Made by a program: the position numbers and the translations under genes | In this document: piece after piece, positions 2,593 through 64,000 of the stretch | Numbering within the stretch: the first letter of the stretch is position 1 | Layout of the letters: every line of letters begins with the position of its first letter | From: a virus | Direction: 5' to 3' (one strand) | IMG/VR virus record: IMGVR_UViG_3300045988_060960 | DNA length: 64,000 nt | Notes under the pieces: model-generated | Told to the model about the DNA's origin: nothing | The model's input: the letters and a program-made list of their open reading frames with translations, nothing else | Databases searched by the model: none

Positions 2593-2606
2593 CGTGAAAA
2601 CTCCTT

Positions 2607-2945: not shown

Positions 2946-2948
2946 TAT

Positions 2949-3191: not shown

Positions 3192-3196
3192 AGCCG

Positions 3197-15941: not shown

Positions 15942-16237
15942 AACATCTGAATTTAAGTCAAACATTAGACACGAAATTCAAACTTTAGGCGGGAAATTCA
16001 ACCCAATGTTTCAGGCCGTGAATGTTTCAATGTATCGCCAATGTTTCACCAATGTATCGGCCAAAACCCCAGTAAAATCAAGGGTTTCCGGCGTTTTGAA
16101 ACATTGAAACATTCATTTCTATAAATTATGAAAATAGAGAGATTAGAGAGATTAGAGAAAATATCGCACGTCTCTAATCTCTCTAATCCGCCTGATTTGC
16201 GCGTAGTACGCGCGCGCGAAACGGCTGAATGTTTCAG
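15925..16237 (+). repeat. 313-bp non-coding element, copy A, bounded by 10-bp terminal inverted repeats CTGAAACATT...AATGTTTCAG
   Basis: It aligns end to end with the reverse complement of 41902-42214, which is the same length. It contains 8 exact TGAAACAT/ATGTTTCA octamers (15926, 15939, 16097, 16105 forward; 16006, 16022, 16041, 16229 reverse), an AT-rich block and an 18-bp hairpin (16141-16158 / 16171-16188). Confidence 0.85.
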
Positions 16238-19899: not shown

Positions 19900-20330
19900 G
19901 AGTGACGTTGGATATAAAAAAGCAGTGCTCTTTCTTCTGGCTGAGAGCTATCCGAAGCGCCCGTATAGACCGGTGCTGCGCCAAGTGTTTCATCGGGGAT
20001 GCCTACCACGAGGTCTATGAAGGAACCCGATTCAAAGATAAGGCGCACGTGGATCTGGAAATCACTCCTGATCCGCGTGTCAAGGCGTATTACCTTTGCG
20101 GTCTCAGCCGTGGATTCCGGTACAAGGATAATACTCACATCGCTTTCGTCCCCTGCGAGGGGCAAGACATTGAAGTGGAAAACGACAAGATTCGGCTCAT
20201 AATTACTGGCGCTCGCCAGATTGATTTCCAGAATTACAAGCCGAACCCGGAAGGCGAATATACCCACGAACAGCGTACCTGCCGAAACTGGATCTTCGCC
20301 AACTATTTGCTGGACGGGATGCCGCTTTGA
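19896..20330 (+). CDS. Cys-containing 145-aa family protein, paralog 2 of 3
   Basis: FFWLRAIR..CCAKCFIG..AYYLCGLS..NTHIAFVP..TCRNWIFANY. Its start overlaps the repressor stop (ATGA), and its stop overlaps the integrase start (TTGA). Confidence 0.8.
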   Translation: MRVTLDIKKQCSFFWLRAIRSARIDRCCAKCFIGDAYHEVYEGTRFKDKAHVDLEITPDPRVKAYYLCGLSRGFRYKDNTHIAFVPCEGQDIEVENDKIRLIITGARQIDFQNYKPNPEGEYTHEQRTCRNWIFANYLLDGMPL

Positions 20331-21727
20331 ACCGCGCAGCCCTCTACATCCGCGTCTCTACGCTTGAACAGGCGCAGGAGGGCTATTCCGTAGGCGAGCA
20401 GAAGGAACGCCTGATTGCGTACTGCAAAGCCAAAGACTGGATCATCGCAGACATCTATGTGGATGGCGGATATACCGGCAGCAATCTGAATCGCCCCGGT
20501 ATCCAGAAGCTCATCTCAGAAACGGATAAGTTTGATCTCGTGCTGGTCTACAAGCTGGACCGCCTCTCACGGTCTCAGCGGGACACGCTGTACCTCATCG
20601 AAGAAATATTCCGGCCCAAGGGCGTAGACTTTATCTCCATGCAGGAGAGCTTCGACACCTCTACGCCCTTCGGAAAAGCAATGATCGGCCTGCTGGCAGT
20701 ATTTGCCCAGCTTGAACGCGAGCAGATCAAGGAGCGAACGTGGATGGGCCGCGTTGCCCGAGCCAAAACCGGCCTCCATCACGGTGGCGGGTACATCCCT
20801 ATCGGCTACGAGTATGAGGACGGGCATCTCGTCATCAATCCGTATGAGGCAGAGCAGGTTCGGAAGATCTACGAATGGTATCTCGCCGGCGCTTCCCTGA
20901 AGACAATAACTGACCGGCTGCAAGAGGCGGGGTACACCAATAAATACAGCAGCTATACCTCGTGGTCAAGTGTTCGGAACATTCTCGGCAATGAGACCTA
21001 CACTGGGAGGCTGCACTTCGGAGATGTGGTCGTGGATCACGCACACGAAGCAATTATCAGTACAGAACAGTTCAACGCTGCACAGGTTCTGCGAGGTAAG
21101 AAGCAGGAACAATACGGCACGGCTTTCCAGTCGAAGCACCTCCTGACTGGGCTTATCTTTTGTGGACATTGCGGAGGACGGTATTACCTTCGCAACACCG
21201 GCAAGTACACCTACTATGCCTGCTACTCCCGCACCAAGCAGATAAAGAGCATGGTCAAGGACCCGAACTGCAAAAACAAGATCTGGAAAGGCTCTGAGCT
21301 GGAACCCATCATTGATGCCAAGATCCGGGAACTGCTGTCCTCCCCGCAGATGGCAGCCGAGATTGCGGCAGCTCGAAAGCCAAAGCCAGCCACCGGCAGC
21401 AGAAATACCGAAGTGGAAAAGCGGCTCCGGGAAATCGACAAACAAATTGGTAAGCTCATGGAGCTGTACCAGCACGACGATATACCGCCCGAGCTTCTGG
21501 GCGAGCGCATCAACAAGCTCTACAACGAGCGCACCGCGTTGGAATCCACCCTTGCCCCGGTGGTCGAGGATGAGGCCATGCCGTTCGATTTGGTGGAGGC
21601 CCTCATCTCGGACGCCGCGCAGGTCTGGGACTTCGCGGACGAGAGCCAGAAACGCCGCATCCTGCAAAGCCTCGTGTCCCGCATTGTGCTCACCGATGAT
21701 GACGTCAAGATTGAGTGGGCCTTCTGA
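20327..21727 (+). CDS. Large serine recombinase (phage integrase)
   Basis: AALYIRVSTLEQ carries the catalytic Ser motif. LVYKLDRLSRS is present, followed by recombinase and zinc-ribbon regions (CGHCGG..YYAC) and a coiled-coil tail. It uses a TTG start. Confidence 0.9.
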   Translation: MNRAALYIRVSTLEQAQEGYSVGEQKERLIAYCKAKDWIIADIYVDGGYTGSNLNRPGIQKLISETDKFDLVLVYKLDRLSRSQRDTLYLIEEIFRPKGVDFISMQESFDTSTPFGKAMIGLLAVFAQLEREQIKERTWMGRVARAKTGLHHGGGYIPIGYEYEDGHLVINPYEAEQVRKIYEWYLAGASLKTITDRLQEAGYTNKYSSYTSWSSVRNILGNETYTGRLHFGDVVVDHAHEAIISTEQFNAAQVLRGKKQEQYGTAFQSKHLLTGLIFCGHCGGRYYLRNTGKYTYYACYSRTKQIKSMVKDPNCKNKIWKGSELEPIIDAKIRELLSSPQMAAEIAAARKPKPATGSRNTEVEKRLREIDKQIGKLMELYQHDDIPPELLGERINKLYNERTALESTLAPVVEDEAMPFDLVEALISDAAQVWDFADESQKRRILQSLVSRIVLTDDDVKIEWAF

Positions 21728-41901: not shown

Positions 41902-42214
41902 CTGAAACATTCAGCCGTTTCGCGCGCGCGTACTATGCACGAATTAGGCGTATTAGAGAGAATAGGCGTATACGTGCTGCACACGAATACGCCTAAATAC
42001 TCTATTTTAGATATTATTAGGAATAAATGTTTCAATGTTTCAAAACGGTCAAAACCCCAGTAAATACGGGGATTTTGGGTGAAACATTGCCGATACATTG
42101 GCGAAACTTTGAAACATTCGGGGGCTGAAACATTGGGTTGAATTTCCCGCCTAAACTTCGACTTTCGTGTCTAATGTTAGACTTTAATTCAGATGTATCA
42201 CCCCAATGTTTCAG
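41902..42214 (-). repeat. 313-bp non-coding element, copy B (inverted relative to copy A)
   Basis: It has the same 10-bp termini and the same length. It contains 7 exact TGAAACAT/ATGTTTCA octamers (41903, 42080, 42110, 42126; 42027, 42035, 42206) and a hairpin TAGGCGTAT/ATACGCCTA (41963-41971 / 41987-41995) at the position homologous to the hairpin in copy A. Confidence 0.85.
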
Positions 42215-51183: not shown

Positions 51184-52644
51184 TTAGAAATTGAAAGAGA
51201 AGCCGAACGGCTGCTTTTCTTCCAGTTCAAGGTAGGCGTTTGCTGACGCATCCACCATATCTTTCAGTTTCCCTACGGGGAAGTTTTCAAGCTGCCTGAA
51301 ATACTCGTCATTCCACTCTGCGAGTTTTACATCGACATTTCCGGCAAGCCACTGAGAGGAAAATGGTTCTGCTCTTGTTACCTTGTCTCCGCTTTCAAGC
51401 GAGGTGGTAACAGTGAAGCCTCCCAGCATTCTCACAAAGCTCTGGGCCTGATCCTTTCCAGCTTGTCCGGGGTCCTGCGGAAGTCGGATAGTCACATTTC
51501 CGTAGAGCGCATTGTCGCTCTGGGCAGTGTTCAGAATGAGTTGTCGCACATCAGCGCCGTTTTCGCGGACATTTATGACGTCCGCGACAAAGATCCGGCC
51601 ATTCTTTCTCTTTCCGAGAAGAACGCCTGCTGTATAAGCGCTGCTGTCGCTACGACTGTTTTTACGTAGAGCCTGCGGCAGTCCGTCAAGTTCGTCCACT
51701 TCACCGGGCGCCGTAGCGGCAAGGTCCCAAGCACGAACCCACCGAACAACGTCGGTAGGCACCGCATGGAACATCTGCCCGACTTTGGAGCGTTTGAAGT
51801 AATGCCCGGCGGATCTTCGGATTTTCCAGTTGCCGTTCAGCAGCTGTTCCTGGTCGAACTCAGACATCGCTCTCAGAGCGCCCATGTATCCAGGGTCGTG
51901 TTTCATCATGGCGGCGTTGTCCGTCAGCTTGGCGCTGATGAAGGATACGGACTTTACGTCTTCTTGCTCCTCCGGGGAATACAGACGGAAAGTTTCGTAC
52001 AGTTCCTGCGGAGTATCGGCCCAGTGGATGATGTTATTTCGCCGGACGAAGTATCGCAGCTTTCCGCATTTACTTTCGTCAGCGTACCCGGTTTCCGGGT
52101 CGATCCACCAGTCGATGAACTTCGCCACCCAGCTCTCGCCGTCAGGGTTGCAAGTGGCGCGGATATGCGGCTTTACGCCGCAGGTTGAGCGGTTACGAGA
52201 GAACATATAGAAAAACTGGCTCTCCGTGAAATGCACGAGTTCGTCGAACATCAGGAGCGGGATCTGAGAACCCTGCCAGTTGTATTTCTCTTTCTCGTAG
52301 AACATATGAGCGAACGTCACTTTGGCGCCAGACTGAAATCGCCACTGCACATTTGGCGTCAAAACGCTTGTCGCACCAAGATACGGATAGATCTCTTGGC
52401 TTGTGGCGTACAGACCGCCAGCGCTCATAATCTGCGGTCTGGACTGGCGGAATATTACGGCCTCGAACAGTTTGTTATCTACGTGCCGCAGACATTCAAG
52501 CAGCAGCGCAAAGGTCTTTCCGCCGCCCGCTGCGCCGCCATAAATACAAATGTCAGCCGGGGACCGCAGAAACATTTCCTGCTTTCCCTTTTGCGGGCGA
52601 ATAATTACCGGGCAGCTGCCGGAATCAGTCTTTCTTTTTGCCAT
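51184..52644 (-). CDS. terL: Terminase large subunit
   Basis: It has a Walker A motif (IYGGAAGGGKTFALL), LLMFDELVHF, and a C-terminal nuclease region. The ATG at 52644 follows GGAGG. Confidence 0.9.
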   Translation of the reverse strand: MAKRKTDSGSCPVIIRPQKGKQEMFLRSPADICIYGGAAGGGKTFALLLECLRHVDNKLFEAVIFRQSRPQIMSAGGLYATSQEIYPYLGATSVLTPNVQWRFQSGAKVTFAHMFYEKEKYNWQGSQIPLLMFDELVHFTESQFFYMFSRNRSTCGVKPHIRATCNPDGESWVAKFIDWWIDPETGYADESKCGKLRYFVRRNNIIHWADTPQELYETFRLYSPEEQEDVKSVSFISAKLTDNAAMMKHDPGYMGALRAMSEFDQEQLLNGNWKIRRSAGHYFKRSKVGQMFHAVPTDVVRWVRAWDLAATAPGEVDELDGLPQALRKNSRSDSSAYTAGVLLGKRKNGRIFVADVINVRENGADVRQLILNTAQSDNALYGNVTIRLPQDPGQAGKDQAQSFVRMLGGFTVTTSLESGDKVTRAEPFSSQWLAGNVDVKLAEWNDEYFRQLENFPVGKLKDMVDASANAYLELEEKQPFGFSFNF

Positions 52645-53059
52645 TCTCACCAACCTCCGAATCTCTCTCAGGCAGGTAAATCTGGACCTGCGGCTGGACA
52701 GAAAGGGGAGTTCCAGTGATCTTGGCCTCCACAGCTTTCCGGTCGTTGAAGAAGTCGCCGCCGTACACCTTCAAGGCATAAATTATGGCGGTCGTATCTC
52801 CACTCGACACGCGCTCCATCAATTTGTTCTGGCACATAGCCACAACGGCAAGACGGCCATTCTTGATGGCTTTCTCCAAAGCAGCGTGTTCTTTTTGGAG
52901 GTTTTGCAAGGTTCGTCTGGTGATGTCGAACACTTTCGCGATCTCATCCATCGACTTACCCTGCATGGCGAGGGACTGCACAATGGCGAGGTTGTTTTCA
53001 ACCTCGCCAGATTCTATCCACTGCTCGAACAGGTCCTTTCTCTTTTTCTCATTAGCCAT
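52625..53059 (-). CDS. terS: Terminase small subunit
   Basis: 144 aa. It has an HTH (GKSMDEIAKVFDITRRTLQNLQKEH) and sits immediately upstream of terL. Confidence 0.75.
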   Translation of the reverse strand: MANEKKRKDLFEQWIESGEVENNLAIVQSLAMQGKSMDEIAKVFDITRRTLQNLQKEHAALEKAIKNGRLAVVAMCQNKLMERVSSGDTTAIIYALKVYGGDFFNDRKAVEAKITGTPLSVQPQVQIYLPERDSEVGENGKKKD

Positions 53060-54455
53060 ACCTCTCCGCTACCTTTTCGATTAGGGCAGTCATAAGACCT
53101 ACGTGCTTGTTGTGCTTGAAGCCGCCGGGGTACTCGATGTTCAGCTCCTTTTCCAGATAAGTCTCATAGACTTCGTCGGGAAGCTGCTTGGGCTTCATGC
53201 AGGCGCAGTAGATATACCCAGCATTGCAGGCCAGAACGCCGACCTCATCGAAATAGTTTTCGAGGAGCGCAACATAGCTCTCACGGGTGTGGAACTTCTG
53301 CTTAAACACGATGCCGTTGGTGACGCCAAGCGTGTAGTTCTTGTCATCAAGATACCACAGGCAGTCACCCGCTCCGGCGGACAGCTTGGTTTTGTCGTAT
53401 GCCTTCTCAACATACGCAAGGTTTCTGGTGCAGGTAATCAGAACGCCGCTGGCTTTCAGAACGGCATTACAGGCGGTGAGAACCGCCTTCTCGAACTCAT
53501 CGTCCACGACAGAGTTGATTACGGCTTCCAGAACGCAGTAATCGAACAATCCGTCTGTGCGGACGTGCCGCTCGGCGCTCAGAATGTTGGCGATGATGCC
53601 CTTCATGTCCAGCTTGTTCGCGCCCTTCACCATAAGGGACGGCTCATACGCATGAATGTCGTAGCCCTTGGATTTCAGCAGCTTCACATAGGCCATGCGC
53701 CCCGCCCCGATGTCGATGATACTGTCCGACCGCTGCAAGCGTGGAATCAGGTACTTCTCATACAGGACAGAAGAATTGGACTGCCGGCCATCCGTACTCA
53801 GGCGCTTGGGCTGCGCAAGGAACTGGTGGTAGGTCTGAACACCGAGATTGTCGAAGTTGTACTTGCCGTACTCGACGCCCATACATTCGAGGAACTCGGC
53901 AACATCCTCGTTTTGGATGGCGTAGCACAGAACGCCGTAGCCCAGCTTCTTGGAGCAGTAGGCATACTCGGAGTTGAGGATGACATTGCCATCCCCATCC
54001 GTAACAACACTGCCCCACTCGCCGTAGCGGGACATCAGCTTGGTGATCTCCGAGCACACGAGAACATTCTGCGGCTCGCTCTCGATCTTGATTTTGTCCG
54101 AGGGGCAATAGTGGTAGCCGCCCACCGTGAACTCCTCGATGCGAACCGTGGTTTTGCTGGTCTCAATCGAGTTGTGCATCAGGTTGAACAGAATCTCGTC
54201 CTGAAGATTGGGGCTTTTGATTCTGATACAAGGCAGGTACTCCAAGCCGATGGCAGTGGCCGCCTTCTTTCTCTGGTGGCCGGCGGTGATGACATTGTTG
54301 GTGGAGTTGACAATCAGGGGCTTAACCATGCCAAACCGACGGATGCTGTGCTGAAGGGCTTCCAGCGCCTCTGGCGTGATGGAGCGGGGGTTGTACTCTG
54401 ATCCGGTTACTTCGTCGATCGGAACCTTCTCCACGAAATCAATCACGGTTTTCAA
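53052..54455 (-). CDS. ParB-N (ParB/Srx-like) domain fused to a class I SAM-dependent methyltransferase
   Basis: N-terminus: EYNPRSITPEALEALQHSIRRFGMVKPLIVN..ITAGHQRKKAA. C-terminus: motif I IIDIGAGRMAY, acidic post-I HAYEPS, motif II FDYCVLEAVINSV. I saw no [DNS]PP[YFW] tetrad anywhere in the 467 aa. Confidence 0.8.
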   Translation of the reverse strand: MKTVIDFVEKVPIDEVTGSEYNPRSITPEALEALQHSIRRFGMVKPLIVNSTNNVITAGHQRKKAATAIGLEYLPCIRIKSPNLQDEILFNLMHNSIETSKTTVRIEEFTVGGYHYCPSDKIKIESEPQNVLVCSEITKLMSRYGEWGSVVTDGDGNVILNSEYAYCSKKLGYGVLCYAIQNEDVAEFLECMGVEYGKYNFDNLGVQTYHQFLAQPKRLSTDGRQSNSSVLYEKYLIPRLQRSDSIIDIGAGRMAYVKLLKSKGYDIHAYEPSLMVKGANKLDMKGIIANILSAERHVRTDGLFDYCVLEAVINSVVDDEFEKAVLTACNAVLKASGVLITCTRNLAYVEKAYDKTKLSAGAGDCLWYLDDKNYTLGVTNGIVFKQKFHTRESYVALLENYFDEVGVLACNAGYIYCACMKPKQLPDEVYETYLEKELNIEYPGGFKHNKHVGLMTALIEKVAERYG

Positions 54456-55296
54456 CCCCCTTCAGAAGATAATTCGCAAAGCTCTCCGCCAGAATTGCGC
54501 CAGAGTCGATGTACTCCTTGTACTTCTCGTTCAGCCGGTCCATCTCCACCTGGGAGATGAAGAACGACACATCGCCGAACCGGAACTGACAGAACGGAAG
54601 AGCTGCTTTGGATTCCTTTTTCTGAGGCTCGTCATCGGCTTCGGGGGCCTCATAGGACGCTGCGTTTTCGGCTGCGGGAACGGAAGCGGCGGGCACATCA
54701 GGCTGGGACGCCAGCGTGGGATAGGAAACCTCCGGCGTCGGGGCCGTATCAACTTCATCATACCCGCCCGCAACTGCATCATTTTCTGCGTTGATGATGG
54801 AATTGCTGTCAACGGTGTGGACGGTGGGCTTCTTGGCCTTGGGCTTGTCGTTTACGCCCATGAAGTTGAAAGCCGGAATCTTGATCTCAGCCTGCTCCGG
54901 CTCGATGTCAAACACCTCGGTGCTCAGCTCGAAGCGATCCAACAGCAGCTGGTTCTTGTCAAGCGTGAGGTCAACGAGGGACAGTTCTTCTTTCAGCTTC
55001 TCAAAGTCCCAGTCGCTGTACTCGCTGGTTTTGTTGTCAACCAGTCGGAACAGATTGATCTGCTCCTCAGACAGCTCATCTGCGACGATGCAGGGAACAG
55101 TCTGGATTCCCATTTCACGGCAGGCCCGCACACGGGTGTGACCGCACACGATTGTGTAATTCATGTCGATAACAACCGGGAACAAGAAGCCGAACCGCTC
55201 GATGCTGTATTTCACCTTCTCTACGGCAAGGTCGTTGTTTCGCGGGTTGTTCTCATATTCCCGCAGACGGGATACGGAAACTTCTCTGATGTTCAT
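54439..55296 (-). CDS. ParB-N domain protein (285 aa)
   Basis: LREYENNPRNNDLAVEKVKYSIERFGFLFPVVID..IVCGHTRVRACREMG. The C-terminal motif FRFGDVSFF...RLNEKYKEYI is shared with the next gene. Confidence 0.8.
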   Translation of the reverse strand: MNIREVSVSRLREYENNPRNNDLAVEKVKYSIERFGFLFPVVIDMNYTIVCGHTRVRACREMGIQTVPCIVADELSEEQINLFRLVDNKTSEYSDWDFEKLKEELSLVDLTLDKNQLLLDRFELSTEVFDIEPEQAEIKIPAFNFMGVNDKPKAKKPTVHTVDSNSIINAENDAVAGGYDEVDTAPTPEVSYPTLASQPDVPAASVPAAENAASYEAPEADDEPQKKESKAALPFCQFRFGDVSFFISQVEMDRLNEKYKEYIDSGAILAESFANYLLKGVENRD

Positions 55297-55820
55297 TCTG
55301 CATTACCTCCCGTCAGATACAGGACAAAACCAAGGTAGGTCTTGTTCTTTTCGATATACGCGTCGTATACGGCCTTCAGGCGGGCGTATTCTTCTTCGGA
55401 CAGCGGAAGTTCTGTGCTGCCGAAAATGAGGCATTTGTGCTCAGTGAAGAACTTTCTGTCCCTGTTCGGCGTGAAGAAGGTGGTCTTGAAATCCATGCCG
55501 ATGCCGCTCAGCTCTTTGTGCAGCTTACCGACATCCCACGTGGAATACTCGTGGCTCTTGTTGTCGATGATCCGGGCCAACTTGGCATCTTCCTCAGACA
55601 TTTCCTGAACAATGCAGGGAACCTCGGTCATTCCAAGCCGTTTCGCGGCCTTCAATCTGGTGTGGCCGGAGATGATGACATTATTCGCGTCGATAGTGAT
55701 AGGGTTGAGGAATCCGAACTCGCGGATGCTTTCTGCAACCTTCGCGACACCGCCATCATTCCGGCGGGCATTTCCCTCGTATTCAACGAGTTCATCTACC
55801 CGCTTGTAAACAATTTCCAT
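55293..55820 (-). CDS. ParB-N domain protein (175 aa)
   Basis: LVEYEGNARRNDGGVAKVAESIREFGFLNPITID..IISGHTRLKAAKRLG. The C-terminal motif is LIFGSTELP...RLKAVYDAYI. Confidence 0.8.
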   Translation of the reverse strand: MEIVYKRVDELVEYEGNARRNDGGVAKVAESIREFGFLNPITIDANNVIISGHTRLKAAKRLGMTEVPCIVQEMSEEDAKLARIIDNKSHEYSTWDVGKLHKELSGIGMDFKTTFFTPNRDRKFFTEHKCLIFGSTELPLSEEEYARLKAVYDAYIEKNKTYLGFVLYLTGGNAE

Positions 55821-55840
55821 GTCGTGTCCTCCTTGTGTGT

Positions 55841-55880
55841 GAGCATAAAAAATGGGAGCCTTTCAGAACGGAAGGCTCCC
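55841..55880 (-). terminator. Rho-independent terminator after the SAM synthetase gene
   Basis: On the minus strand, the 9-bp stem GGGAGCCTT / AAGGCTCCC has a 9-nt loop and is followed by ATTTTTT. Confidence 0.7.
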
Positions 55881-55905
55881 AAATTTATCAGGTATTCAGT
55901 TTCCG

Positions 55906-56700
55906 TTAAAACAGGCCCCACTCAGCGAACTTTTCAAAACCGCCGCAGTTCTTGATAAACTCTCTGGCGATCTCAACGATTTCGCTGTAAGGCTTCCCGT
56001 CAACCTCGTCGTCGCCGATGGCGCAGAACAGCTTGACCGGCTTGCCGGTATGCTGCGCTTTGAGGAAAGCGTAAATATTGACGGACACATCCGCCTTGGA
56101 CAGGTCCTTTCCGTGCAGCCCGCCGCCCGTGACAGAATCAGCCATGTCAGAGCCGAGCTTTCGGTTAGTTGCTCCGGTATCAACATCCGTTCCGCCAGTC
56201 CAGTCGCCGAGCGGGTTGATCTCGGCGGTGGGGTACATCTTTTCGAGGTCTGCCTTCGCAGCGTTGCTCTGGCAGATAATGAGCTGATCTTCGCTCTTGA
56301 TATACTTGCCGTCAAACGGATAGGCTGCATAGATGTCGTGGGCAATCGCGGAGAGCGTCTTCTGCTCCTCCGTGAGCGGCATCCCTTTGAAGATACCGTT
56401 GTCGCCGCAGTGAACACCCCGCTCCTGATTTCCTGCGAGGTGTACATCCTGCGGGACGATAACGAGGTCGATCTGCACGAAGCCAGCGATGCGGCGGATC
56501 GCGTTGTGGATTGCAACGACAACTTCGGGCATAAGAAGCGGCGCCGAAGTCTCGACAACCGCATGGCATACGCCGTGGCCCACCAGAACCTCAACCGCGA
56601 TTTTGGGGTCGGGCTGTACCTGATAGGCAATGTCTACGATCGCGCCGGCAATCCGGTCTGCGATTTTGTCCGGGTGGGACGGATTTACTTTCTCAATCAT
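55906..56700 (-). CDS. Miniature S-adenosylmethionine synthetase (MAT/MetK-like, 264 aa)
   Basis: SHPDKIADRIAGAIVD (compare GHPDKICDQISDA), CGDNGIFKG (compare GDQGLMFGY), and TGATNRKLGSD...GGGLHGKDLSKADVSVN (compare TGRK...GGGAFSGKDPSKVDRSA). Confidence 0.8.
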   Translation of the reverse strand: MIEKVNPSHPDKIADRIAGAIVDIAYQVQPDPKIAVEVLVGHGVCHAVVETSAPLLMPEVVVAIHNAIRRIAGFVQIDLVIVPQDVHLAGNQERGVHCGDNGIFKGMPLTEEQKTLSAIAHDIYAAYPFDGKYIKSEDQLIICQSNAAKADLEKMYPTAEINPLGDWTGGTDVDTGATNRKLGSDMADSVTGGGLHGKDLSKADVSVNIYAFLKAQHTGKPVKLFCAIGDDEVDGKPYSEIVEIAREFIKNCGGFEKFAEWGLF

Positions 56701-56704
56701 GGTC

Positions 56705-57541
56705 TCAGTTCCTTTGCTTTATTTTTTCGTTCCCGTTGAGAGGCGGCCCGAGGAGGTCGCAATCCACGTCAGGAGCGGGCTGAACATAGCCGTAGTGGTT
56801 TGCATAACAGTAGGCGCAGCCGTTGCTGCAAGTGCTGTACGCACCGATATCGACGCTCTCAACGCATTGGCAAAGGCCGCGCTGGTTGCGGTCCTTTGGC
56901 TTGTCAACGCCAAACATTTTTCCATCGACGCAGCAAGAATGGGGTATTCCCAAATCCTCTGCGCAGGAACTTAAAACGATCCCGTGCTGCCGTGCAATCT
57001 CGAAAAGTTCCTGCGCAAATTCGCGCTGCTGCTCCGGCGACAAGGGCTGTATTTTGAGCGGTCGGAGGTCTACGCTTCGGTAGGAATCGACGAAGCTCAT
57101 CACCGCCTTATACGTGTGGCCTTCGAGCGCCTCCGCGATTTTGGTAAAAGCCCTGACGTGATAATCCCAGGTGTATTTCTCATTCAGAAAGACGGGATCG
57201 TAACGCCAGATGGCCTTATCCGCCCCGATCTTTTTGAACGCCGGAATAACAATCTCGTTCTTATCGGGAATATTCCGCTCCACATCCCGGCCATACGGGG
57301 TGATGGTGTACTGGAAATAATATTTGAACGCATCCAGCTCGTGAATTCTATCGAGCATGGGGGCTGCGTTTTTGGTCCAAAAAACAAACCCATCTACTTT
57401 GTCGGGCGTGAGGGATACACGCCCGACTTGTAGAGGGTTGTATGGGTTTCTAAGGAGGACAAATCCCTTACCCACGCGGTTGTAAAACCACTCGGAGAAC
57501 AAAGCCGGGATGTCCGTCCGTCTACTTGCGCTCACGATCAT
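56705..57541 (-). CDS. DUF1848-like protein with a C-terminal Cys cluster (putative Fe-S, radical-SAM-like)
   Basis: The N-terminus is MIVSASRRTDIPALFSEWFYNRV and the C-terminus is GLCQCVESVDIGAYSTCSNGCAYCYANH. Start set at 57541 (ATGA overlap with the upstream gene). The track ORF extends further by read-through. Confidence 0.8.
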   Translation of the reverse strand: MIVSASRRTDIPALFSEWFYNRVGKGFVLLRNPYNPLQVGRVSLTPDKVDGFVFWTKNAAPMLDRIHELDAFKYYFQYTITPYGRDVERNIPDKNEIVIPAFKKIGADKAIWRYDPVFLNEKYTWDYHVRAFTKIAEALEGHTYKAVMSFVDSYRSVDLRPLKIQPLSPEQQREFAQELFEIARQHGIVLSSCAEDLGIPHSCCVDGKMFGVDKPKDRNQRGLCQCVESVDIGAYSTCSNGCAYCYANHYGYVQPAPDVDCDLLGPPLNGNEKIKQRN

Positions 57542-58008
57542 AATGGCATCCCATCCTTCAAGTAATTCGCAAATATCCAGTTTCGGCAGGTCCGCTGAGA
57601 CTTTGTATAAACTCCGGGCGGATTCGGAACATAGTCCCAGAAGTGAATTCTGCGGGCGTTTGTGATGTCGAGCTTGATTCTGTCGTTTTCGATGTGAACT
57701 TCCGAATTGCTGTCCGGCACAAACGCGACGTGCGTATTCAACTCCCACACAAAACCATCGCTCAGCCCGCAAAGATAATACGCTTTCGCTCGCGGGCTTT
57801 GCCCCACCATGATGTCAACAACGGCCTGCGATTTGTGCAGTGTTCCGTAGTAGACCCGGTTGTCCTTCTCGCCGATAAAACACTTGGCGCAGCATTGCGA
57901 GATGTCAACGTCCCGAATGTCTCGGAGCCAGAAGAAATTGCATTTCTTCCGAATCTCCAATCGCAGGTGCATCGGCGCGTGTGTAACTATGAAATCCGAT
58001 GGTATCAT
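57538..58008 (-). CDS. Cys-containing 145-aa family protein, paralog 3 of 3
   Basis: MHLRLEIRKKCNFFWLRDIR..CCAKCFIG..AYYLCGLS..NTHVAFVP..TCRNWIFANY. The likely true start is the ATG at 57972, because the ATG at 58008 lies inside the -10 box. Confidence 0.8.
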   Translation of the reverse strand: MIPSDFIVTHAPMHLRLEIRKKCNFFWLRDIRDVDISQCCAKCFIGEKDNRVYYGTLHKSQAVVDIMVGQSPRAKAYYLCGLSDGFVWELNTHVAFVPDSNSEVHIENDRIKLDITNARRIHFWDYVPNPPGVYTKSQRTCRNWIFANYLKDGMPL

Positions 58009-58036
58009 TATAGCACCCCCTTAAATGACAGGTCAA
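58007..58036 (-). promoter_or_regulatory. Candidate promoter TTGACC-18-TATAAT for the three-gene SAM cassette
   Basis: On the minus strand, TTGACC is at 58036-58031 and TATAAT at 58012-58007. Confidence 0.45.
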
Positions 58037-58440
58037 TGACAGCTTTGTGACACGACGGAGACCCCTTGAATTTCAGGGTTCTGCGCCATGATCCAGTTCC
58101 CGAACTCGGTCAGGATCACCTCGCAGGGGCAAGAAAGCGCCGGCAAGAACTCCACGCCGGTCTCACTCATCGCACTGCGAACCGCAATGAACTCGCGGTC
58201 ATACCCGCTCACACGAGTTCTGGAAACCTTGGCTCGGTCGCCGTGGTCAGTGAAGCTCTCGAACAATGCGTGAGCGAGCGGATTTCCGGCGCTCAGCGAT
58301 TCACCCACAGTGAGCCGAGCTAAAACAACTTTGTAGCCTCCCGGAACAGTACCGACGAGGGTGTATTCACTGACGTTGCTCACGTAGTTCGGGAGAGGAT
58401 TGCCGCCCTCAAAGGGCTGCGGAATAAAATTCTTAATCAT
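58033..58440 (-). CDS. Hypothetical protein
   Basis: 135-aa ORF that overlaps its neighbours. Confidence 0.6.
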   Translation of the reverse strand: MIKNFIPQPFEGGNPLPNYVSNVSEYTLVGTVPGGYKVVLARLTVGESLSAGNPLAHALFESFTDHGDRAKVSRTRVSGYDREFIAVRSAMSETGVEFLPALSCPCEVILTEFGNWIMAQNPEIQGVSVVSQSCH

Positions 58441-58681
58441 CGTTGTCTACAACCTCCACAAAAGTATTTTCATCTTCGCAGTCCAGAGCGAGCATCAGGT
58501 CTGTATAGCTGGCGTTCTGAATTTCGATGGAACGCGAATTGGTGAGATCGCGTACCGTGATTTTCCGAGTGGGATGAAGGGCAGATACGAGATCAACCAG
58601 GTATTTCAAAACGCAGCAAACCAGAACCGTAAAACCGAGCCAGATCCAGAAGCTCGAAAAGATAAACTTAATAAATTCCAT
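58433..58681 (-). CDS. Small membrane protein (82 aa)
   Basis: The ATG overlaps the upstream stop. The product begins MEFIKFIFSSFWIWLGFTVLVCCVL. Confidence 0.55.
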   Translation of the reverse strand: MEFIKFIFSSFWIWLGFTVLVCCVLKYLVDLVSALHPTRKITVRDLTNSRSIEIQNASYTDLMLALDCEDENTFVEVVDNDD

Positions 58682-59223
58682 CACACGTTTCCTCCTCCAA
58701 CTGTTGAATCGTGCCACTGCAAACCGCGCTTTTTGTAAAGCGGAATCCAATGTTCGGCGTAGAAATCATAACCGGCTCCGTCGATTCCGAAGAAGTACCC
58801 CCACTCATCGTGGTGATAAATTCGGAATCCGCAGTCCGACATCGCACGAATGCCATCCTCATTTTCGAGCCAGTAATCATCGCAGGAATCTCCGAAGCTC
58901 CACATCGTTCCCCACATGGGGAGCGGATCATCGTTTGCCAATTCCAGATTATCCGGTTCTACGAGGATGGAAGGTCCTCCATCCAGATCCACACGGTACT
59001 TGTCGATCTCCGCGGAATACGCGACGACCTCGCCGAGATGTTCCAGCGTGTCACAATTTTCGGGCAGATCGAATACGTAAACCCGCCTGCCGGCACTGGG
59101 AAACGTCAGCTCCTCCCACTCCTCGCACTTAGACTGCATGAGCCGCTCAATCATACCCTGCGGAATGGCATTGAACTCGCGGACCCATTTTTGAGTGGCG
59201 TCATTTATAGATAAGCCTTTCAT
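58681..59223 (-). CDS. Hypothetical conserved phage protein
   Basis: 180 aa. It has a PMWGTMWSF...GIDGAGYDFYAEHWIPLYKKRGLQWH block. I recall the pattern from phage proteins of unknown function. Confidence 0.65.
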   Translation of the reverse strand: MKGLSINDATQKWVREFNAIPQGMIERLMQSKCEEWEELTFPSAGRRVYVFDLPENCDTLEHLGEVVAYSAEIDKYRVDLDGGPSILVEPDNLELANDDPLPMWGTMWSFGDSCDDYWLENEDGIRAMSDCGFRIYHHDEWGYFFGIDGAGYDFYAEHWIPLYKKRGLQWHDSTVGGGNV

Positions 59224-59238
59224 GTCCTTTTCACCTCC

Positions 59239-59940
59239 TTACAGTTCATACTCTTTGGGTCGCCCAGCCTTTCCCTTGTACCGAACGCTGGGACGCACCC
59301 ACACAGTTTTGCCGGACTTGTAATGCCGCAAGTGGCCTCTGATATTGACCTCGTGCTCAGGCTTGGTATACTTGCGCTTGGCGCCTTCCGGCTTCGGCAA
59401 ATCCTCCGGCTGGAAATCGCCGAGCGTGTAGATGCGTCGGATGAGGGGCTGCGGTCGCCGTATGTGGCGGCCTTTTTTCTTGGACTTCGCAGGTCGATGC
59501 TCCGTTCGCTGCTCGACCTTGACCACCTCCCGGTAGTGGGTCATAAACAGCATCAGCGCGTGATACTTCTGCGCCTCTTTCCGGCACATATTGTCCGACA
59601 TGACGAGCACATTGAGCAGCTCCAAATCCACCGCAGTCTGACTACCTGCCGGAGCCACCCGGCGGTTTCGGATTTCGGTGGTCTCCGGGTCATAGTCGAA
59701 CGCCACGATGGGCGGGAGGTTCGGCTTCGTTGTGACATACACAACGATCTCCGCGAAGCTGCCCTTGCTCTCGAACGTGAACTCGACCTGCTCCTCGCAA
59801 AGTTCCACAACACCGGATTCCATAGGGGCCAGAAATTTCTCGCGGTCGAGCCAGTTGAAGTTCTCGAAGTACCAATCGAGAACCAGCTGCATACGAGCGT
59901 TGCTCTTAACAATGATGCGATCAGCCGAGTTCCTGTTCAC
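59239..59940 (-). CDS. Hypothetical protein with a basic C-terminus
   Basis: 233 aa. A GTG start follows GGAGGG. Confidence 0.65.
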   Translation of the reverse strand: MNRNSADRIIVKSNARMQLVLDWYFENFNWLDREKFLAPMESGVVELCEEQVEFTFESKGSFAEIVVYVTTKPNLPPIVAFDYDPETTEIRNRRVAPAGSQTAVDLELLNVLVMSDNMCRKEAQKYHALMLFMTHYREVVKVEQRTEHRPAKSKKKGRHIRRPQPLIRRIYTLGDFQPEDLPKPEGAKRKYTKPEHEVNIRGHLRHYKSGKTVWVRPSVRYKGKAGRPKEYEL

Positions 59941-59943
59941 AGG

Positions 59944-60561
59944 TCAACCCTCCAATCTGGTGCTCCACCGAGCAGCTTTTTCGCGGATGAACCGCTCAAC
60001 TTCATCCTGGTCCAATCCCAAAGCTGCCGCGCACACAACCACATCGGCGAACTCCTCATTCAAAGCGCGGGACGCCTCACTCGTACTGACCGGGGTGCGG
60101 TTGCGCTTGTCAATAGTTCTGCGCAACTTCAGTGCGGCCTGAGACAATTCAGCGGCTTCCTCTGCCAGCCCTGCCAGAAGCTCACAGCAGCCAAGCAAAG
60201 TGTGTACTTCCGCAAGCTCACGGCCCCAGTCTTCGAGAGCCTTTTCGATACTTACCTCCGGGCGAATTACCTCGCGGATAATCTCTACCCGAAGGCAGCC
60301 CTCGATATCCTCCGATTCGTCGGCATGGTCATAATCAGCGAGCTTAACTTTCAGAGCCAGATCCCGAGACGGGATGAAAGCATCCACAATGGAGGGGATG
60401 CAGCTGAACCCGTTGTCGGTGTTCCAGCAGACTGCGAAGTCCTTCCCGCTTTGCCGCAGAACGTAGCACAGCTCGTTCAGCGAGCGAGGGTTGCTCTTGG
60501 CGAGGAGCGGGTGCTTTGCAAACTCCTCGTCAAGCCAGGTCTTGAATTGCTCAATATTCAT
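59944..60561 (-). CDS. MazG-like nucleotide pyrophosphohydrolase domain protein
   Basis: The C-terminal half LLAGLAEEAAELSQAALKLRR...LNEEFADVVVCAAALGLD matches the MazG EExxE/helical pattern. The ATG at 60561 follows AAAAGGAGGA. Confidence 0.65.
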   Translation of the reverse strand: MNIEQFKTWLDEEFAKHPLLAKSNPRSLNELCYVLRQSGKDFAVCWNTDNGFSCIPSIVDAFIPSRDLALKVKLADYDHADESEDIEGCLRVEIIREVIRPEVSIEKALEDWGRELAEVHTLLGCCELLAGLAEEAAELSQAALKLRRTIDKRNRTPVSTSEASRALNEEFADVVVCAAALGLDQDEVERFIREKAARWSTRLEG

Positions 60562-60585
60562 CTCATGTCCTCCTTTTTTGGGCAA

Positions 60586-60615
60586 TAGAAAAAGGCCCGC
60601 CGGTTTGGCGGGCCT
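60586..60615 (-). terminator. Rho-independent terminator (minus strand), mirrored at 60868-60897
   Basis: The 9-bp stem AGGCCCGCC / GGCGGGCCT is followed by a T-run on the minus strand. Confidence 0.6.
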
Positions 60616-60921
60616 CTCGGTATAGGCAAATTCAGCTATCTATCAAGGTGGAAACTATACCAAAAAGTCTTTTGGACTTCAATGTATCACCGCCTATTCG
60701 CAATCTTTATGTCACAGAACAGCCATTAGTCACACGGGGTATACCCCGTGTGACTAATGGCTGTTCTGTGACATAAAGATTGCGAATAGGCGGTGATACA
60801 TTGAAGTCCAAAAGACTTTTTGGTATAGTTTCCACCTTGATAGATAGCTGAATTTGCCTATACCGAGAGGCCCGCCAAACCGGCGGGCCTTTTTCTATTG
60901 CCCAAAAAAGGAGGACATGAG

Positions 60922-61539
60922 ATGAATATTGAGCAATTCAAGACCTGGCTTGACGAGGAGTTTGCAAAGCACCCGCTCCTCGCCAAGAGCAACCCTCGCT
61001 CGCTGAACGAGCTGTGCTACGTTCTGCGGCAAAGCGGGAAGGACTTCGCAGTCTGCTGGAACACCGACAACGGGTTCAGCTGCATCCCCTCCATTGTGGA
61101 TGCTTTCATCCCGTCTCGGGATCTGGCTCTGAAAGTTAAGCTCGCTGATTATGACCATGCCGACGAATCGGAGGATATCGAGGGCTGCCTTCGGGTAGAG
61201 ATTATCCGCGAGGTAATTCGCCCGGAGGTAAGTATCGAAAAGGCTCTCGAAGACTGGGGCCGTGAGCTTGCGGAAGTACACACTTTGCTTGGCTGCTGTG
61301 AGCTTCTGGCAGGGCTGGCAGAGGAAGCCGCTGAATTGTCTCAGGCCGCACTGAAGTTGCGCAGAACTATTGACAAGCGCAACCGCACCCCGGTCAGTAC
61401 GAGTGAGGCGTCCCGCGCTTTGAATGAGGAGTTCGCCGATGTGGTTGTGTGCGCGGCAGCTTTGGGATTGGACCAGGATGAAGTTGAGCGGTTCATCCGC
61501 GAAAAAGCTGCTCGGTGGAGCACCAGATTGGAGGGTTGA
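60922..61539 (+). CDS. Mirror copy of the MazG-like gene
   Basis: Its translation is identical to 59944-60561. Confidence 0.5.
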   Translation: MNIEQFKTWLDEEFAKHPLLAKSNPRSLNELCYVLRQSGKDFAVCWNTDNGFSCIPSIVDAFIPSRDLALKVKLADYDHADESEDIEGCLRVEIIREVIRPEVSIEKALEDWGRELAEVHTLLGCCELLAGLAEEAAELSQAALKLRRTIDKRNRTPVSTSEASRALNEEFADVVVCAAALGLDQDEVERFIREKAARWSTRLEG

Positions 61540-61542
61540 CCT

Positions 61543-62244
61543 GTGAACAGGAACTCGGCTGATCGCATCATTGTTAAGAGCAACGCTCGTATGCAGCTGG
61601 TTCTCGATTGGTACTTCGAGAACTTCAACTGGCTCGACCGCGAGAAATTTCTGGCCCCTATGGAATCCGGTGTTGTGGAACTTTGCGAGGAGCAGGTCGA
61701 GTTCACGTTCGAGAGCAAGGGCAGCTTCGCGGAGATCGTTGTGTATGTCACAACGAAGCCGAACCTCCCGCCCATCGTGGCGTTCGACTATGACCCGGAG
61801 ACCACCGAAATCCGAAACCGCCGGGTGGCTCCGGCAGGTAGTCAGACTGCGGTGGATTTGGAGCTGCTCAATGTGCTCGTCATGTCGGACAATATGTGCC
61901 GGAAAGAGGCGCAGAAGTATCACGCGCTGATGCTGTTTATGACCCACTACCGGGAGGTGGTCAAGGTCGAGCAGCGAACGGAGCATCGACCTGCGAAGTC
62001 CAAGAAAAAAGGCCGCCACATACGGCGACCGCAGCCCCTCATCCGACGCATCTACACGCTCGGCGATTTCCAGCCGGAGGATTTGCCGAAGCCGGAAGGC
62101 GCCAAGCGCAAGTATACCAAGCCTGAGCACGAGGTCAATATCAGAGGCCACTTGCGGCATTACAAGTCCGGCAAAACTGTGTGGGTGCGTCCCAGCGTTC
62201 GGTACAAGGGAAAGGCTGGGCGACCCAAAGAGTATGAACTGTAA
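61543..62244 (+). CDS. Mirror copy of the 233-aa hypothetical protein
   Basis: Its translation is identical to 59239-59940. Confidence 0.5.
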   Translation: MNRNSADRIIVKSNARMQLVLDWYFENFNWLDREKFLAPMESGVVELCEEQVEFTFESKGSFAEIVVYVTTKPNLPPIVAFDYDPETTEIRNRRVAPAGSQTAVDLELLNVLVMSDNMCRKEAQKYHALMLFMTHYREVVKVEQRTEHRPAKSKKKGRHIRRPQPLIRRIYTLGDFQPEDLPKPEGAKRKYTKPEHEVNIRGHLRHYKSGKTVWVRPSVRYKGKAGRPKEYEL

Positions 62245-62259
62245 GGAGGTGAAAAGGAC

Positions 62260-62802
62260 ATGAAAGGCTTATCTATAAATGACGCCACTCAAAAATGGGT
62301 CCGCGAGTTCAATGCCATTCCGCAGGGTATGATTGAGCGGCTCATGCAGTCTAAGTGCGAGGAGTGGGAGGAGCTGACGTTTCCCAGTGCCGGCAGGCGG
62401 GTTTACGTATTCGATCTGCCCGAAAATTGTGACACGCTGGAACATCTCGGCGAGGTCGTCGCGTATTCCGCGGAGATCGACAAGTACCGTGTGGATCTGG
62501 ATGGAGGACCTTCCATCCTCGTAGAACCGGATAATCTGGAATTGGCAAACGATGATCCGCTCCCCATGTGGGGAACGATGTGGAGCTTCGGAGATTCCTG
62601 CGATGATTACTGGCTCGAAAATGAGGATGGCATTCGTGCGATGTCGGACTGCGGATTCCGAATTTATCACCACGATGAGTGGGGGTACTTCTTCGGAATC
62701 GACGGAGCCGGTTATGATTTCTACGCCGAACATTGGATTCCGCTTTACAAAAAGCGCGGTTTGCAGTGGCACGATTCAACAGTTGGAGGAGGAAACGTGT
62801 GA
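62260..62802 (+). CDS. Mirror copy of the 180-aa hypothetical protein
   Basis: Its translation is identical to 58681-59223. Confidence 0.5.
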   Translation: MKGLSINDATQKWVREFNAIPQGMIERLMQSKCEEWEELTFPSAGRRVYVFDLPENCDTLEHLGEVVAYSAEIDKYRVDLDGGPSILVEPDNLELANDDPLPMWGTMWSFGDSCDDYWLENEDGIRAMSDCGFRIYHHDEWGYFFGIDGAGYDFYAEHWIPLYKKRGLQWHDSTVGGGNV

Positions 62803-63050
62803 TGGAATTTATTAAGTTTATCTTTTCGAGCTTCTGGATCTGGCTCGGTTTTACGGTTCTGGTTTGCTGCGTTTTGAAATACCTGGTTGATCTCGTATCT
62901 GCCCTTCATCCCACTCGGAAAATCACGGTACGCGATCTCACCAATTCGCGTTCCATCGAAATTCAGAACGCCAGCTATACAGACCTGATGCTCGCTCTGG
63001 ACTGCGAAGATGAAAATACTTTTGTGGAGGTTGTAGACAACGATGATTAA
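62802..63050 (+). CDS. Mirror copy of the small membrane protein
   Basis: Its translation is identical to 58433-58681. Confidence 0.45.
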   Translation: MEFIKFIFSSFWIWLGFTVLVCCVLKYLVDLVSALHPTRKITVRDLTNSRSIEIQNASYTDLMLALDCEDENTFVEVVDNDD

Positions 63051-63450
63051 GAATTTTATTCCGCAGCCCTTTGAGGGCGGCAATCCTCTCCCGAACTACG
63101 TGAGCAACGTCAGTGAATACACCCTCGTCGGTACTGTTCCGGGAGGCTACAAAGTTGTTTTAGCTCGGCTCACTGTGGGTGAATCGCTGAGCGCCGGAAA
63201 TCCGCTCGCTCACGCATTGTTCGAGAGCTTCACTGACCACGGCGACCGAGCCAAGGTTTCCAGAACTCGTGTGAGCGGGTATGACCGCGAGTTCATTGCG
63301 GTTCGCAGTGCGATGAGTGAGACCGGCGTGGAGTTCTTGCCGGCGCTTTCTTGCCCCTGCGAGGTGATCCTGACCGAGTTCGGGAACTGGATCATGGCGC
63401 AGAACCCTGAAATTCAAGGGGTCTCCGTCGTGTCACAAAGCTGTCATTGA
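63043..63450 (+). CDS. Mirror copy of the 135-aa hypothetical protein
   Basis: Its translation is identical to 58033-58440. Confidence 0.5.
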   Translation: MIKNFIPQPFEGGNPLPNYVSNVSEYTLVGTVPGGYKVVLARLTVGESLSAGNPLAHALFESFTDHGDRAKVSRTRVSGYDREFIAVRSAMSETGVEFLPALSCPCEVILTEFGNWIMAQNPEIQGVSVVSQSCH

Positions 63451-63474
63451 CCTGTCATTTAAGGGGGTGCTATA

Positions 63475-63945
63475 ATGATACCATCGGATTTCATAGTTAC
63501 ACACGCGCCGATGCACCTGCGATTGGAGATTCGGAAGAAATGCAATTTCTTCTGGCTCCGAGACATTCGGGACGTTGACATCTCGCAATGCTGCGCCAAG
63601 TGTTTTATCGGCGAGAAGGACAACCGGGTCTACTACGGAACACTGCACAAATCGCAGGCCGTTGTTGACATCATGGTGGGGCAAAGCCCGCGAGCGAAAG
63701 CGTATTATCTTTGCGGGCTGAGCGATGGTTTTGTGTGGGAGTTGAATACGCACGTCGCGTTTGTGCCGGACAGCAATTCGGAAGTTCACATCGAAAACGA
63801 CAGAATCAAGCTCGACATCACAAACGCCCGCAGAATTCACTTCTGGGACTATGTTCCGAATCCGCCCGGAGTTTATACAAAGTCTCAGCGGACCTGCCGA
63901 AACTGGATATTTGCGAATTACTTGAAGGATGGGATGCCATTATGA
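63475..63945 (+). CDS. Mirror copy of the Cys-containing family protein (paralog 3)
   Basis: Its translation is identical to 57538-58008. Confidence 0.5.
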   Translation: MIPSDFIVTHAPMHLRLEIRKKCNFFWLRDIRDVDISQCCAKCFIGEKDNRVYYGTLHKSQAVVDIMVGQSPRAKAYYLCGLSDGFVWELNTHVAFVPDSNSEVHIENDRIKLDITNARRIHFWDYVPNPPGVYTKSQRTCRNWIFANYLKDGMPL

Positions 63946-64000
63946 TCGTGAGCGCAAGTAGACGGACGGACATCCCGGCTTTGTTCTCCGAGTGGTTTTA
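63942..64000 (+). CDS. Mirror copy of the DUF1848-like gene, 5' fragment truncated by the window end
   Basis: It begins ATGATCGTGAGCGCAAGTAGACGG = MIVSASRR. Confidence 0.5.
   Translation, partial: MIVSASRRTDIPALFSEWF

Follow-up and report, generated by a model that had tools for sequence, protein, structure and literature searches.

Genes for S-adenosylmethionine (SAM) synthetase (metK) are common auxiliary genes of gut phages (PMC11283538, PMC12180181) and are carried by 59% of the Ca. Heliusvirales genomes (PMC11283538). The placement of a phage metK beside a ParB-methylase gene has been described earlier, with the proposal that the synthetase supplies the methyl donor for the adjacent methylase (PMC4260502); such pairs occur in Φ1207.3 (orf29/orf32), in the Gardnerella phage vB_Gva_AB1 (ORF19/20) and in Ca. 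Heliusvirales. The uncharacterised protein family DUF1848 (PF08902) is known as the partner of the UG25 methylase-reverse transcriptase (RT) fusions, whose defence role was rated inconclusive by the authors of that work (Mestre et al. 2022, PMC9226505). Our search of the literature on DUF1848, PF08902 and IPR014998 retrieved essentially one relevant paper, and no paper on a minimised phage methionine adenosyltransferase (MAT, SAM synthetase) was found. Here we analysed a locus at which the two families meet, a cassette on the minus strand, from 58036 to 55841, of the virus record IMGVR_UViG_3300045988_060960; the 64,000-nt stretch of virus DNA analysed is referred to as the window. The cassette consists of a gene encoding a 156-aa protein, here called gene A (57538-58008), a DUF1848 gene (56705-57541, 278 aa) and a mini-MAT gene (55906-56700, 264 aa).

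Based on the order of the genes, patterns of conservation, conserved motifs and family membership, from which we infer the biochemical functions, we consider that the cassette contains two modules side by side, an A-DUF1848 operon and a MAT belonging with ParB-N/methyltransferase genes, which share one transcript here. We give this reading a probability of roughly 0.6. The pairing of MAT with a ParB-methylase is already known, and so is DUF1848 as an uncharacterised family; their combination, through recruitment of the MAT into the DUF1848 transcript, is a lineage-specific variant. As in the described metK/ParB-methylase pairs, the MAT of the window lies upstream of ParB-N in the packaging region, falls in the same conserved family and is proposed to have the same methyl-donor role. 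Unlike in those pairs, a terminator separates MAT from ParB, the MAT is probably co-transcribed with A-DUF1848, and there are three ParB-N genes, with a Methyltransf_23-like domain instead of N6_N4_Mtase. In size, the 264 aa of the mini-MAT compare with 353 aa for Φ1207.3 orf29, a full three-domain MAT.

The two-module reading is carried by comparison with related loci, for which IMG/VR was scanned twice, once seeded with DUF1848 and once with the ParB-methyltransferase. All lineage members with sufficient flanking sequence carried the A-DUF1848 genes and the three ParB genes, whereas the MAT gene was present in about 22 of the lineage loci and absent from about 10 (the MAT-minus loci are L007-L012, L029-L031 and L154-L159). 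Variable presence, as expected of a moron, is thus true for the MAT and untrue for A-DUF1848. The MAT-minus relatives, with 78-89% DUF1848 identity, have the order up135-A-DUF1848-ParB×3-TerS-like-TerL-portal, where up135 is a gene of 135 aa upstream of gene A, and in L007-L012 an equivalent terminator hairpin directly follows DUF1848. Loci with and without MAT are interleaved by identity, a MAT-plus locus being found at 79% and a MAT-minus locus at 89% DUF1848 identity. In L160 (IMG/VR 3300010163_000911, 3790-4672) MAT is separated from DUF1848 by the terminator, and ParB1 begins 37 nt after MAT; therefore, the MAT of this locus belongs to the ParB operon and not to the DUF1848 operon.

Beyond the lineage, phage records, IMG/VR and bacterial genomes supplied about 100 distant DUF1848 loci (30-52% identity). 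None of these had MAT, gene A or the ParB trio near DUF1848, and one of them showed a weak ParB match. Seen from the side of the mini-MAT, a ParB-N/DNA methylase gene was directly downstream on the same strand in 69 of 79 IMG/VR loci, while DUF1848 was within 4 kb in only 9 of the 79, all of the window's lineage. NatCom_991, Gardnerella AB1 and Javan191 show the order small terminase (Terminase_4), mini-MAT, and ParB_N fused to N6_N4_Mtase (PF01555). We consider the ParB_N/methyltransferase genes the likely functional partner module of MAT. The preliminary description of this DNA had called the cassette a self-contained three-gene system. Co-occurrence of the three genes was indeed seen in about 20 lineage loci, but in none of the distant loci, and the claimed unity was not borne out: the MAT is variably present within the lineage, is located beyond the terminator in L160 and partners ParB-methylase genes elsewhere.

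The layout given in the preliminary description agreed with our analysis in nearly all respects. The three genes are tightly packed on the minus strand from 58008 to 55906; the junction of gene A and DUF1848 is an ATGA overlap (57541-57538) and DUF1848 is followed by mini-MAT after a gap of 4 nt (56704-56701), both exactly as claimed. The intrinsic terminator at 55841-55880, composed of a 10-bp GC-rich hairpin and then T6, was confirmed by folding, with -19 kcal/mol and z = -3.6 (0 of 200 shuffles folded as well). The three genes are probably transcribed together in this phage.

The promoter claimed upstream of gene A stood only in part. The sequence TTGACC-18-TGcTATAAT at 58007-58036 has the best fit to a sigma-70 promoter in 8 kb (11 of 12 positions, and the TG extension as well), and its -10 hexamer is conserved as TAnAAT in relatives; but sigma-70-like matches in these 8 kb are at chance level (4 found, 4.7 expected), and the -10 hexamer runs into the probable start codon of gene A. 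That ATG, at 58008, has a Shine-Dalgarno sequence 7 nt upstream at 58022-58016, which is GGGGG here and AGGAGG in relatives. The distance from the ATG to a conserved methionine, Met13, is 24-42 nt (8-14 codons) in 21 diverged relatives and is always a multiple of three and free of stop codons, which argues that the N-terminal extension is translated. Since a transcript starting from that -10 could not encode the extension, the promoter role of the site is doubtful. With respect to the signals expected of a moron, therefore, the unit has a good terminator and a promoter-like match that overlaps the probable start codon.

A different element was found in the same region. Three TGTCAY direct repeats spaced by 11 nt (58025-58052, minus strand) are comprised in the block GTGTCACAAAnnTGTCATTGAC, which is invariant in 21 diverged relatives, synonymous positions included. 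The repeats overlap the stop codon of up135 and the TTGAC hexamer. The triple-repeat pattern is unique in the window except for a palindromic copy (see below), with 0.9 chance matches expected. Judged from the sequence, it looks like a candidate binding site for a regulator or a ParB-type protein.

The claim of a miniature SAM synthetase held up well: the MetK blocks are present in 264 aa, compared with 384 aa for E. coli MetK (sequence verified against PDB 7ll3), and the catalytic residues are kept. The protein matched PF00438, the N-terminal MetK domain, over residues 3-71 with 41.2 bits (cutoff 33.1), and phrog_1569, annotated as 'unknown function', at E 2e-66. Matches to PF02772 and PF02773 were not obtained, and TIGR01034 gave 47 bits (cutoff 309); the central and C-terminal domains are too reduced for Pfam and TIGR01034 scoring. 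By hhalign (probability 90%), residues 3-208 were aligned on positions 9-276 of E. coli MetK, and H9, D11, K12, E37, D100, D174, R180, K181, K198, K202 and D204 fell on the catalytic positions H15, D17, K18, E43, D119, D239, R245, K246, K266, K270 and D272 (numbered from Met1), respectively. All eleven residues, and likewise P10 of the HPDK motif, are invariant in 18 family members; for MetK K166 no counterpart was aligned by hhalign. By these criteria the mini-MAT looks functional as a SAM synthetase. Its family comprises at least 8000 clusters at 90% identity and at least 574 IMG/VR loci, and its members are 67-85% identical between phages of Gardnerella, Streptococcus and Oscillospiraceae. 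GC content and GC content at third codon positions of the gene are not distinct from those of its neighbours, so composition gives no sign of a recent foreign origin. A naturally minimised and extremely conserved SAM synthetase of about 260 aa is also of practical interest.

The position of the cassette, with three ParB-N genes and a methyltransferase domain downstream of it, was likewise confirmed. The mini-MAT adjoins ParB1 upstream on the same strand, near the terminase genes, with the terminator between the two in the window. The three ParB_N genes (55293-55820, 54439-55296 and 53052-54455, all minus strand) matched ParB_N at E 1e-9 to 1e-10 and are followed by a TerS-like gene and then TerL (51184-52653). 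The third ParB_N protein (467 aa) is fused to a class-I methyltransferase-like domain of Methyltransf_23/11 type, whose Methyltransf_23 score of 23.8 bits is below the cutoff of 27, and it matches phrog_5475 ('unknown function'). We also noted a weak PADLOC 'mad2' match of this protein. No close relative of TerL was found among deposited phages (at most 52% identity).

Gene A heads the cassette and through the ATGA overlap appears translationally coupled to DUF1848. In the preliminary description it was assigned to a Cys-rich family of 145 aa, and such a family does exist: gene A has two paralogues elsewhere in the window, at 6062-6499 (minus strand) and 19896-20330 (plus strand), with 66% and 59% identity. 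One of them precedes a 562-aa open reading frame without Pfam match, an order kept in other contigs as 146 aa followed by 583 aa; the other comes after an HTH_3 repressor-like gene and shares its last 4 nt with the start of the gene for a large serine recombinase (20327-21727). Because the paralogues head different, unrelated genes, the gene A family is not specific to DUF1848, and it seems from these arrangements to be a 'leader' gene for different cargoes. We found 355 homologues, in which C39, C40, C43, C80, H93 and C141 are invariant. The profile searches that had been suggested for the three proteins succeeded for two of them, with PF08902 and PF00438, but gene A received no family assignment in Pfam, PHROG, PADLOC or NCBIfam; a TIGR04184 match at E 0.005, with 16 bits where the cutoff is 475, was taken as noise. 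The AlphaFold2 (AF2) model of protein A has a mean predicted local distance difference test score (pLDDT) of 91.4, with residues 1-7 disordered. It resembled nothing in the PDB at better than E 0.13, and the fold search of BFVD returned two uncharacterised phage proteins and no others.

These results bear directly on the view put forward in the preliminary description, that A, DUF1848 and mini-MAT form one module in which SAM made by the phage feeds a radical-SAM-type enzyme that installs, with the ParB-N/methyltransferase proteins, a DNA hypermodification or counter-defence mark. In the window, as in near-identical contigs and about 20 IMG/VR loci, the three genes do belong to a single unit bounded by a terminator, DUF1848 co-occurs with the ParB-methyltransferase in all lineage members with enough flank, and DUF1848 has a CxxxCxYC motif and radical-SAM enzymes as its top fold matches (see below). 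However, the MAT is dispensable in the lineage and variable in its position relative to the terminator, neither MAT nor gene A is near any of the roughly 100 distant DUF1848 loci, 60 of the 79 mini-MAT loci have the ParB/methylase partner but no DUF1848, and gene A paralogues head unrelated genes. We therefore regard a single module as unlikely, and the picture of phage SAM made for a novel Fe-S enzyme as mostly an accident of gene order. Under the two-module reading the remaining value of the locus is its DUF1848 protein, a tractable handle on a family without structure or function and with almost no literature.

The DUF1848 protein matched PF08902 over profile positions 1-262 of 262 (E 8.5e-88, 295 bits, cutoff 30.5), and 3,915 clusters at 50% identity belong to the family at E <= 1e-10; models for it are absent from NCBIfam and PHROGs. 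Across 102 sequences, with identities as low as 30%, seven cysteines show 100% conservation: C193, C204, C224 and C226, and the motif C238-x3-C242-x2-C245, with Y244 before the third motif cysteine. The preliminary description had pointed to a DUF1848-like protein with a C-terminal Cys cluster resembling that of radical-SAM enzymes, and both the full-length PF08902 match and the CxxxCxYC motif agree with this. We consider the protein a probable two-cluster Fe-S enzyme, with the CxxxCxYC site and a four-Cys site. The C-terminal position of the motif is atypical for radical SAM, in which it is normally after β1; the protein runs 30 aa beyond '...CYAN'. At E <= 0.01 the radical-SAM profile PF04055 gave no match, and profile and phmmer searches of PDB sequences revealed no radical-SAM relatives. 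The PDB-chain matches that did appear with the single sequence and the profile (Cas12i2, adiponectin, PTPN21) were rejected as noise.

A comparison of the predicted structure with radical-SAM folds had been recommended as a check, and its outcome was mixed. The AF2 model (pLDDT 93.8; predicted template modelling score, pTM, 0.91) consists of 7-8 β/α units and then an irregular Cys-rich C-terminus, and further invariant residues (among them S4-D10, N32, W55-N58, R113-P116, S149-Y154 and E195) are located at the C-terminal strand ends, as in barrel enzymes. Foldseek found nothing close in the PDB. The best probabilities were obtained for radical-SAM enzymes, namely Cfr (E 1e-3, template modelling (TM) score 0.34), PFL-AE (target-normalised TM-score 0.64) and NifB (0.50), but these scores are weak, and generic and xylose-isomerase-like triosephosphate isomerase (TIM) barrels (IolE, IolI; probability 0.97-0.99) scored similarly. 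Like SplB and RlmN/Cfr, DUF1848 combines a CxxxCxΦC motif with an α/β partial-barrel model, has Cfr as its top Foldseek match and may have a DNA-directed role. It differs from them in the C-terminal location of the motif, which is not after β1, in four additional invariant cysteines, in the lack of a PF04055 match and in its weak fold scores. The position of the motif may reflect a circular permutation of the radical-SAM fold, which is possible.

Homologues gave further clues to the role of DUF1848. A C-terminal Qxx[LIMF][FL] tail, such as NQLNLF, SQLSLF or CQLTLFD, was found within the last 14 residues of 49 of 111 representatives (295-345 aa) and at 51 of 101 distant DUF1848 loci, compared with 0.3-0.4% of other 14-aa windows, an enrichment of more than 100-fold. 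The motif QL[SD]LF is the bacterial β-sliding-clamp-binding motif, typical of DNA repair and replication enzymes, and the tail could accordingly be read as a clamp-binding-like motif. Unlike about half of the homologues, the proteins of the window's lineage lack the tail: it occurred neither in the window's own protein nor in any of 81 lineage proteins, which end with ...KIKQRN-like sequences. Rare fusions of DUF1848 to PcrA/UvrD tudor, SplB-like Radical_SAM (annotated by JGI as 'DNA repair photolyase') and GNAT domains are singletons or tiny clusters and give weak hints. A 434-aa 'A-DUF1848 fusion' (P0042) was rejected as Rosetta-stone evidence, being a frameshifted and error-ridden read-through.

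Methyltransferase-like genes recur beside the distant homologues. In 21 of 96 distant loci such a gene is directly upstream of DUF1848 on the same strand (L001, L032, L041, L042, L065, L071, L075, L083, L086, L099, L110, L115, L116, L121, L127 and others), and two further loci have other methyltransferase-like neighbours. The upstream protein is about 300 aa long, class-I, Cys-rich, with GxGxG motifs and without a Pfam match, and it matches PADLOC C3a159 'methyl transferase' at E 1.6e-13; the pair may be a conserved two-gene module on mobile elements. Homology of this upstream family to the ParB-methyltransferase of the window was not detected at E <= 1e-3 by iterated hidden Markov model searches. 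The remaining contexts are variable and often mobile, with serine or tyrosine integrases, a Schlafen/AlbA gene or smpB-adjacent sites, and in about 75% of the bacterial loci DUF1848 is alone in an unremarkable context. The PADLOC model RTasDUF1848 (PDLC03815, DRT) matched the window's protein over positions 1-240 of 242 (E 1.1e-39), which shows family membership only, because all DUF1848 proteins tested match similarly. Like the UG25/DUF1848 family, the window's protein is a full-length match with all seven cysteines and has a methyltransferase nearby. Unlike the UG25 systems, the locus is without an RT, no RT domain being found in the scanned genes from 51184 to 60585 or in the called genes of related loci, and the partner is an orphan protein of 156 aa. 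The tails, the methyltransferase neighbours, the link to PADLOC and UG25 and the fusions together point to a DNA-directed Fe-S enzyme linked to methyltransferases. Of the nucleic-acid modification system suggested in the preliminary description, a DNA-directed role thus gains support for DUF1848 from its homologues, whereas the dedicated three-gene system does not.

The fold results leave room for a reading without SAM, in which DUF1848 would repair DNA as a nuclease or glycosylase of the TIM-barrel type, its Fe-S clusters having a structural or redox function as in EndoIII and AddB, and would process DNA near packaging. The xylose-isomerase-like TIM-barrel superfamily contains Endo IV and UvdE, and barrels of this type (IolE, IolI) are among the Foldseek matches at probability 0.97-0.99; the missing PF04055 match, the clamp-binding-like tails and PcrA/UvrD-tudor fusion, which suggest DNA repair, and the nearness to ParB-like nuclease-domain genes and terminase are consistent with it. 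Nevertheless, CxxxCxYC with an aromatic residue before the third cysteine matches the radical-SAM signature in its canonical form, with 100% conservation here, the best target-normalised TM-scores are those of radical-SAM domains (PFL-AE and NifB), one DUF1848 protein is fused to an SplB-like radical-SAM domain, and no Endo IV-type metal-binding His/Asp/Glu pattern was identified in DUF1848. A nuclease or glycosylase is thus improbable in our judgement. A joint reading, which we hold with considerable doubt, would take DUF1848 as a circularly permuted radical-SAM DNA enzyme of anaerobes whose work follows that of methyltransferases: it would either repair alkylation damage or off-target methylation, as an oxygen-independent counterpart of AlkB, or modify the methylated base further. 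Cellular versions would be recruited by the β-clamp, in the window's lineage the co-translated protein A would replace the clamp tail, and mini-MAT would feed both the ParB-methyltransferase and DUF1848. If this were true, the locus would represent a genuine phage pathway of DNA modification or repair not described before.

That A-DUF1848 is a prophage moron expressed in the lysogen for anti-phage defence or exclusion and related to the UG25 accessory is quite unlikely, because the RTasDUF1848 match and the UG25-DUF1848 association (PMC9226505), the promoter-like site and terminator of the unit, its location about 1 kb from a prophage-host junction in L011 and the integrases, Schlafen/AlbA and methyltransferase-like genes often beside distant homologues are offset by the inconclusive defence role of UG25, the lack of an RT near the locus, the limitation of the PADLOC match to family membership, the solitary, unremarkable context of about 75% of bacterial DUF1848 loci, tails that suit repair more than defence and a doubtful promoter.

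The L011 locus (ENA ANDE20-1 scaffold_46, 1-4940) is a prophage copy of the lineage in which, about 1 kb upstream of gene A, the phage borders on bacterial-looking genes, so the A-DUF1848 unit lies close to one prophage end. Its flank encodes a Fer2/Fer4 protein, GGDEF-EAL, QueF, a PfkB-type kinase and a small radical-SAM protein.

Several observations weigh against the two-module reading as well. In the window and in about 20 related loci the MAT is inside the A-DUF1848 unit, upstream of the terminator, so a functional MAT-DUF1848 link is possible in this sub-lineage. In the third ParB protein, the methyltransferase domain departs from canonical DNA methylases, having a sub-cutoff Methyltransf_23 score and no N6_N4_Mtase match. 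The likeness of DUF1848 to radical-SAM structures is weak (E about 1e-3, TM 0.34-0.64), ordinary TIM barrels scoring alike, and the clamp-binding reading of the QxxLF tail is one of resemblance only, for a tail that the window's protein does not itself carry. DNA methylation, MAT activity, Fe-S binding and SAM cleavage are all deductions.

Under the two-module reading the locus might work as follows. The first module would be A and DUF1848, a lineage-specific operon linked by ATGA, with the conserved repeat and promoter-like region upstream and the terminator downstream, in what appear to be gut temperate phages of Lachnospiraceae/Oscillospiraceae type. The second would be the mini-MAT, a mobile, highly conserved and very common phage gene that is usually found in the packaging module, where it directly precedes a ParB-N/DNA methyltransferase gene; within this lineage the mini-MAT probably landed at the junction of DUF1848 and ParB, in the window just upstream of the terminator. 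Late in infection, MAT would raise the supply of SAM, and the ParB-N/methyltransferase proteins would methylate progeny DNA before packaging and so protect it from restriction. DUF1848 is most likely an oxygen-sensitive Fe-S enzyme with an α/β barrel, a CxxxCxYC cluster that possibly binds SAM and a four-Cys auxiliary cluster, and its substrate is probably DNA, in a repair or modification reaction linked to methylation; its use of SAM, if any, would be a secondary benefit. Like the T3 SAM lyase (anti-restriction and anti-bacteriophage exclusion, BREX), the phage would manipulate the host SAM pool in a restriction or defence context, but in the opposite direction: T3 degrades SAM and inhibits MetK; the phage of the window would instead add SAM-synthesising capacity.

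For the DUF1848 family the leads are two probable Fe-S sites, a clamp-binding-like tail and methyltransferase partners, met with in bacteria, in mobile elements, in a defence-type RT system and in the window's lineage. If DUF1848 is an anaerobic enzyme of methylation-linked DNA repair or modification, it would fill a gap on methylation chemistry in strict anaerobes and their phages.

Two repeats in the window remain to be described. Positions 57483-60741 and 60742-64000 are exact reverse complements of 3,259 nt without a spacer, reaching the end of the window. Two near-identical independent contigs (L013 and L015) end no more than about 100 nt from the centre of the palindrome, which places the fold-back at a contig or genome end. 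The inverted duplication is probably an assembly or library snap-back at the end of a linear genome or contig; a hairpin-type terminus is conceivable. The genes at 60898-63998 are mirror copies arising from the fold-back, and since the palindrome is perfect, the second copy of gene A (63475-63945) is a duplicate artefact. The other repeat is an inverted one of 222 nt, 81% complementary, with arms at 15925-16146 and 41993-42214, 25.8 kb apart.

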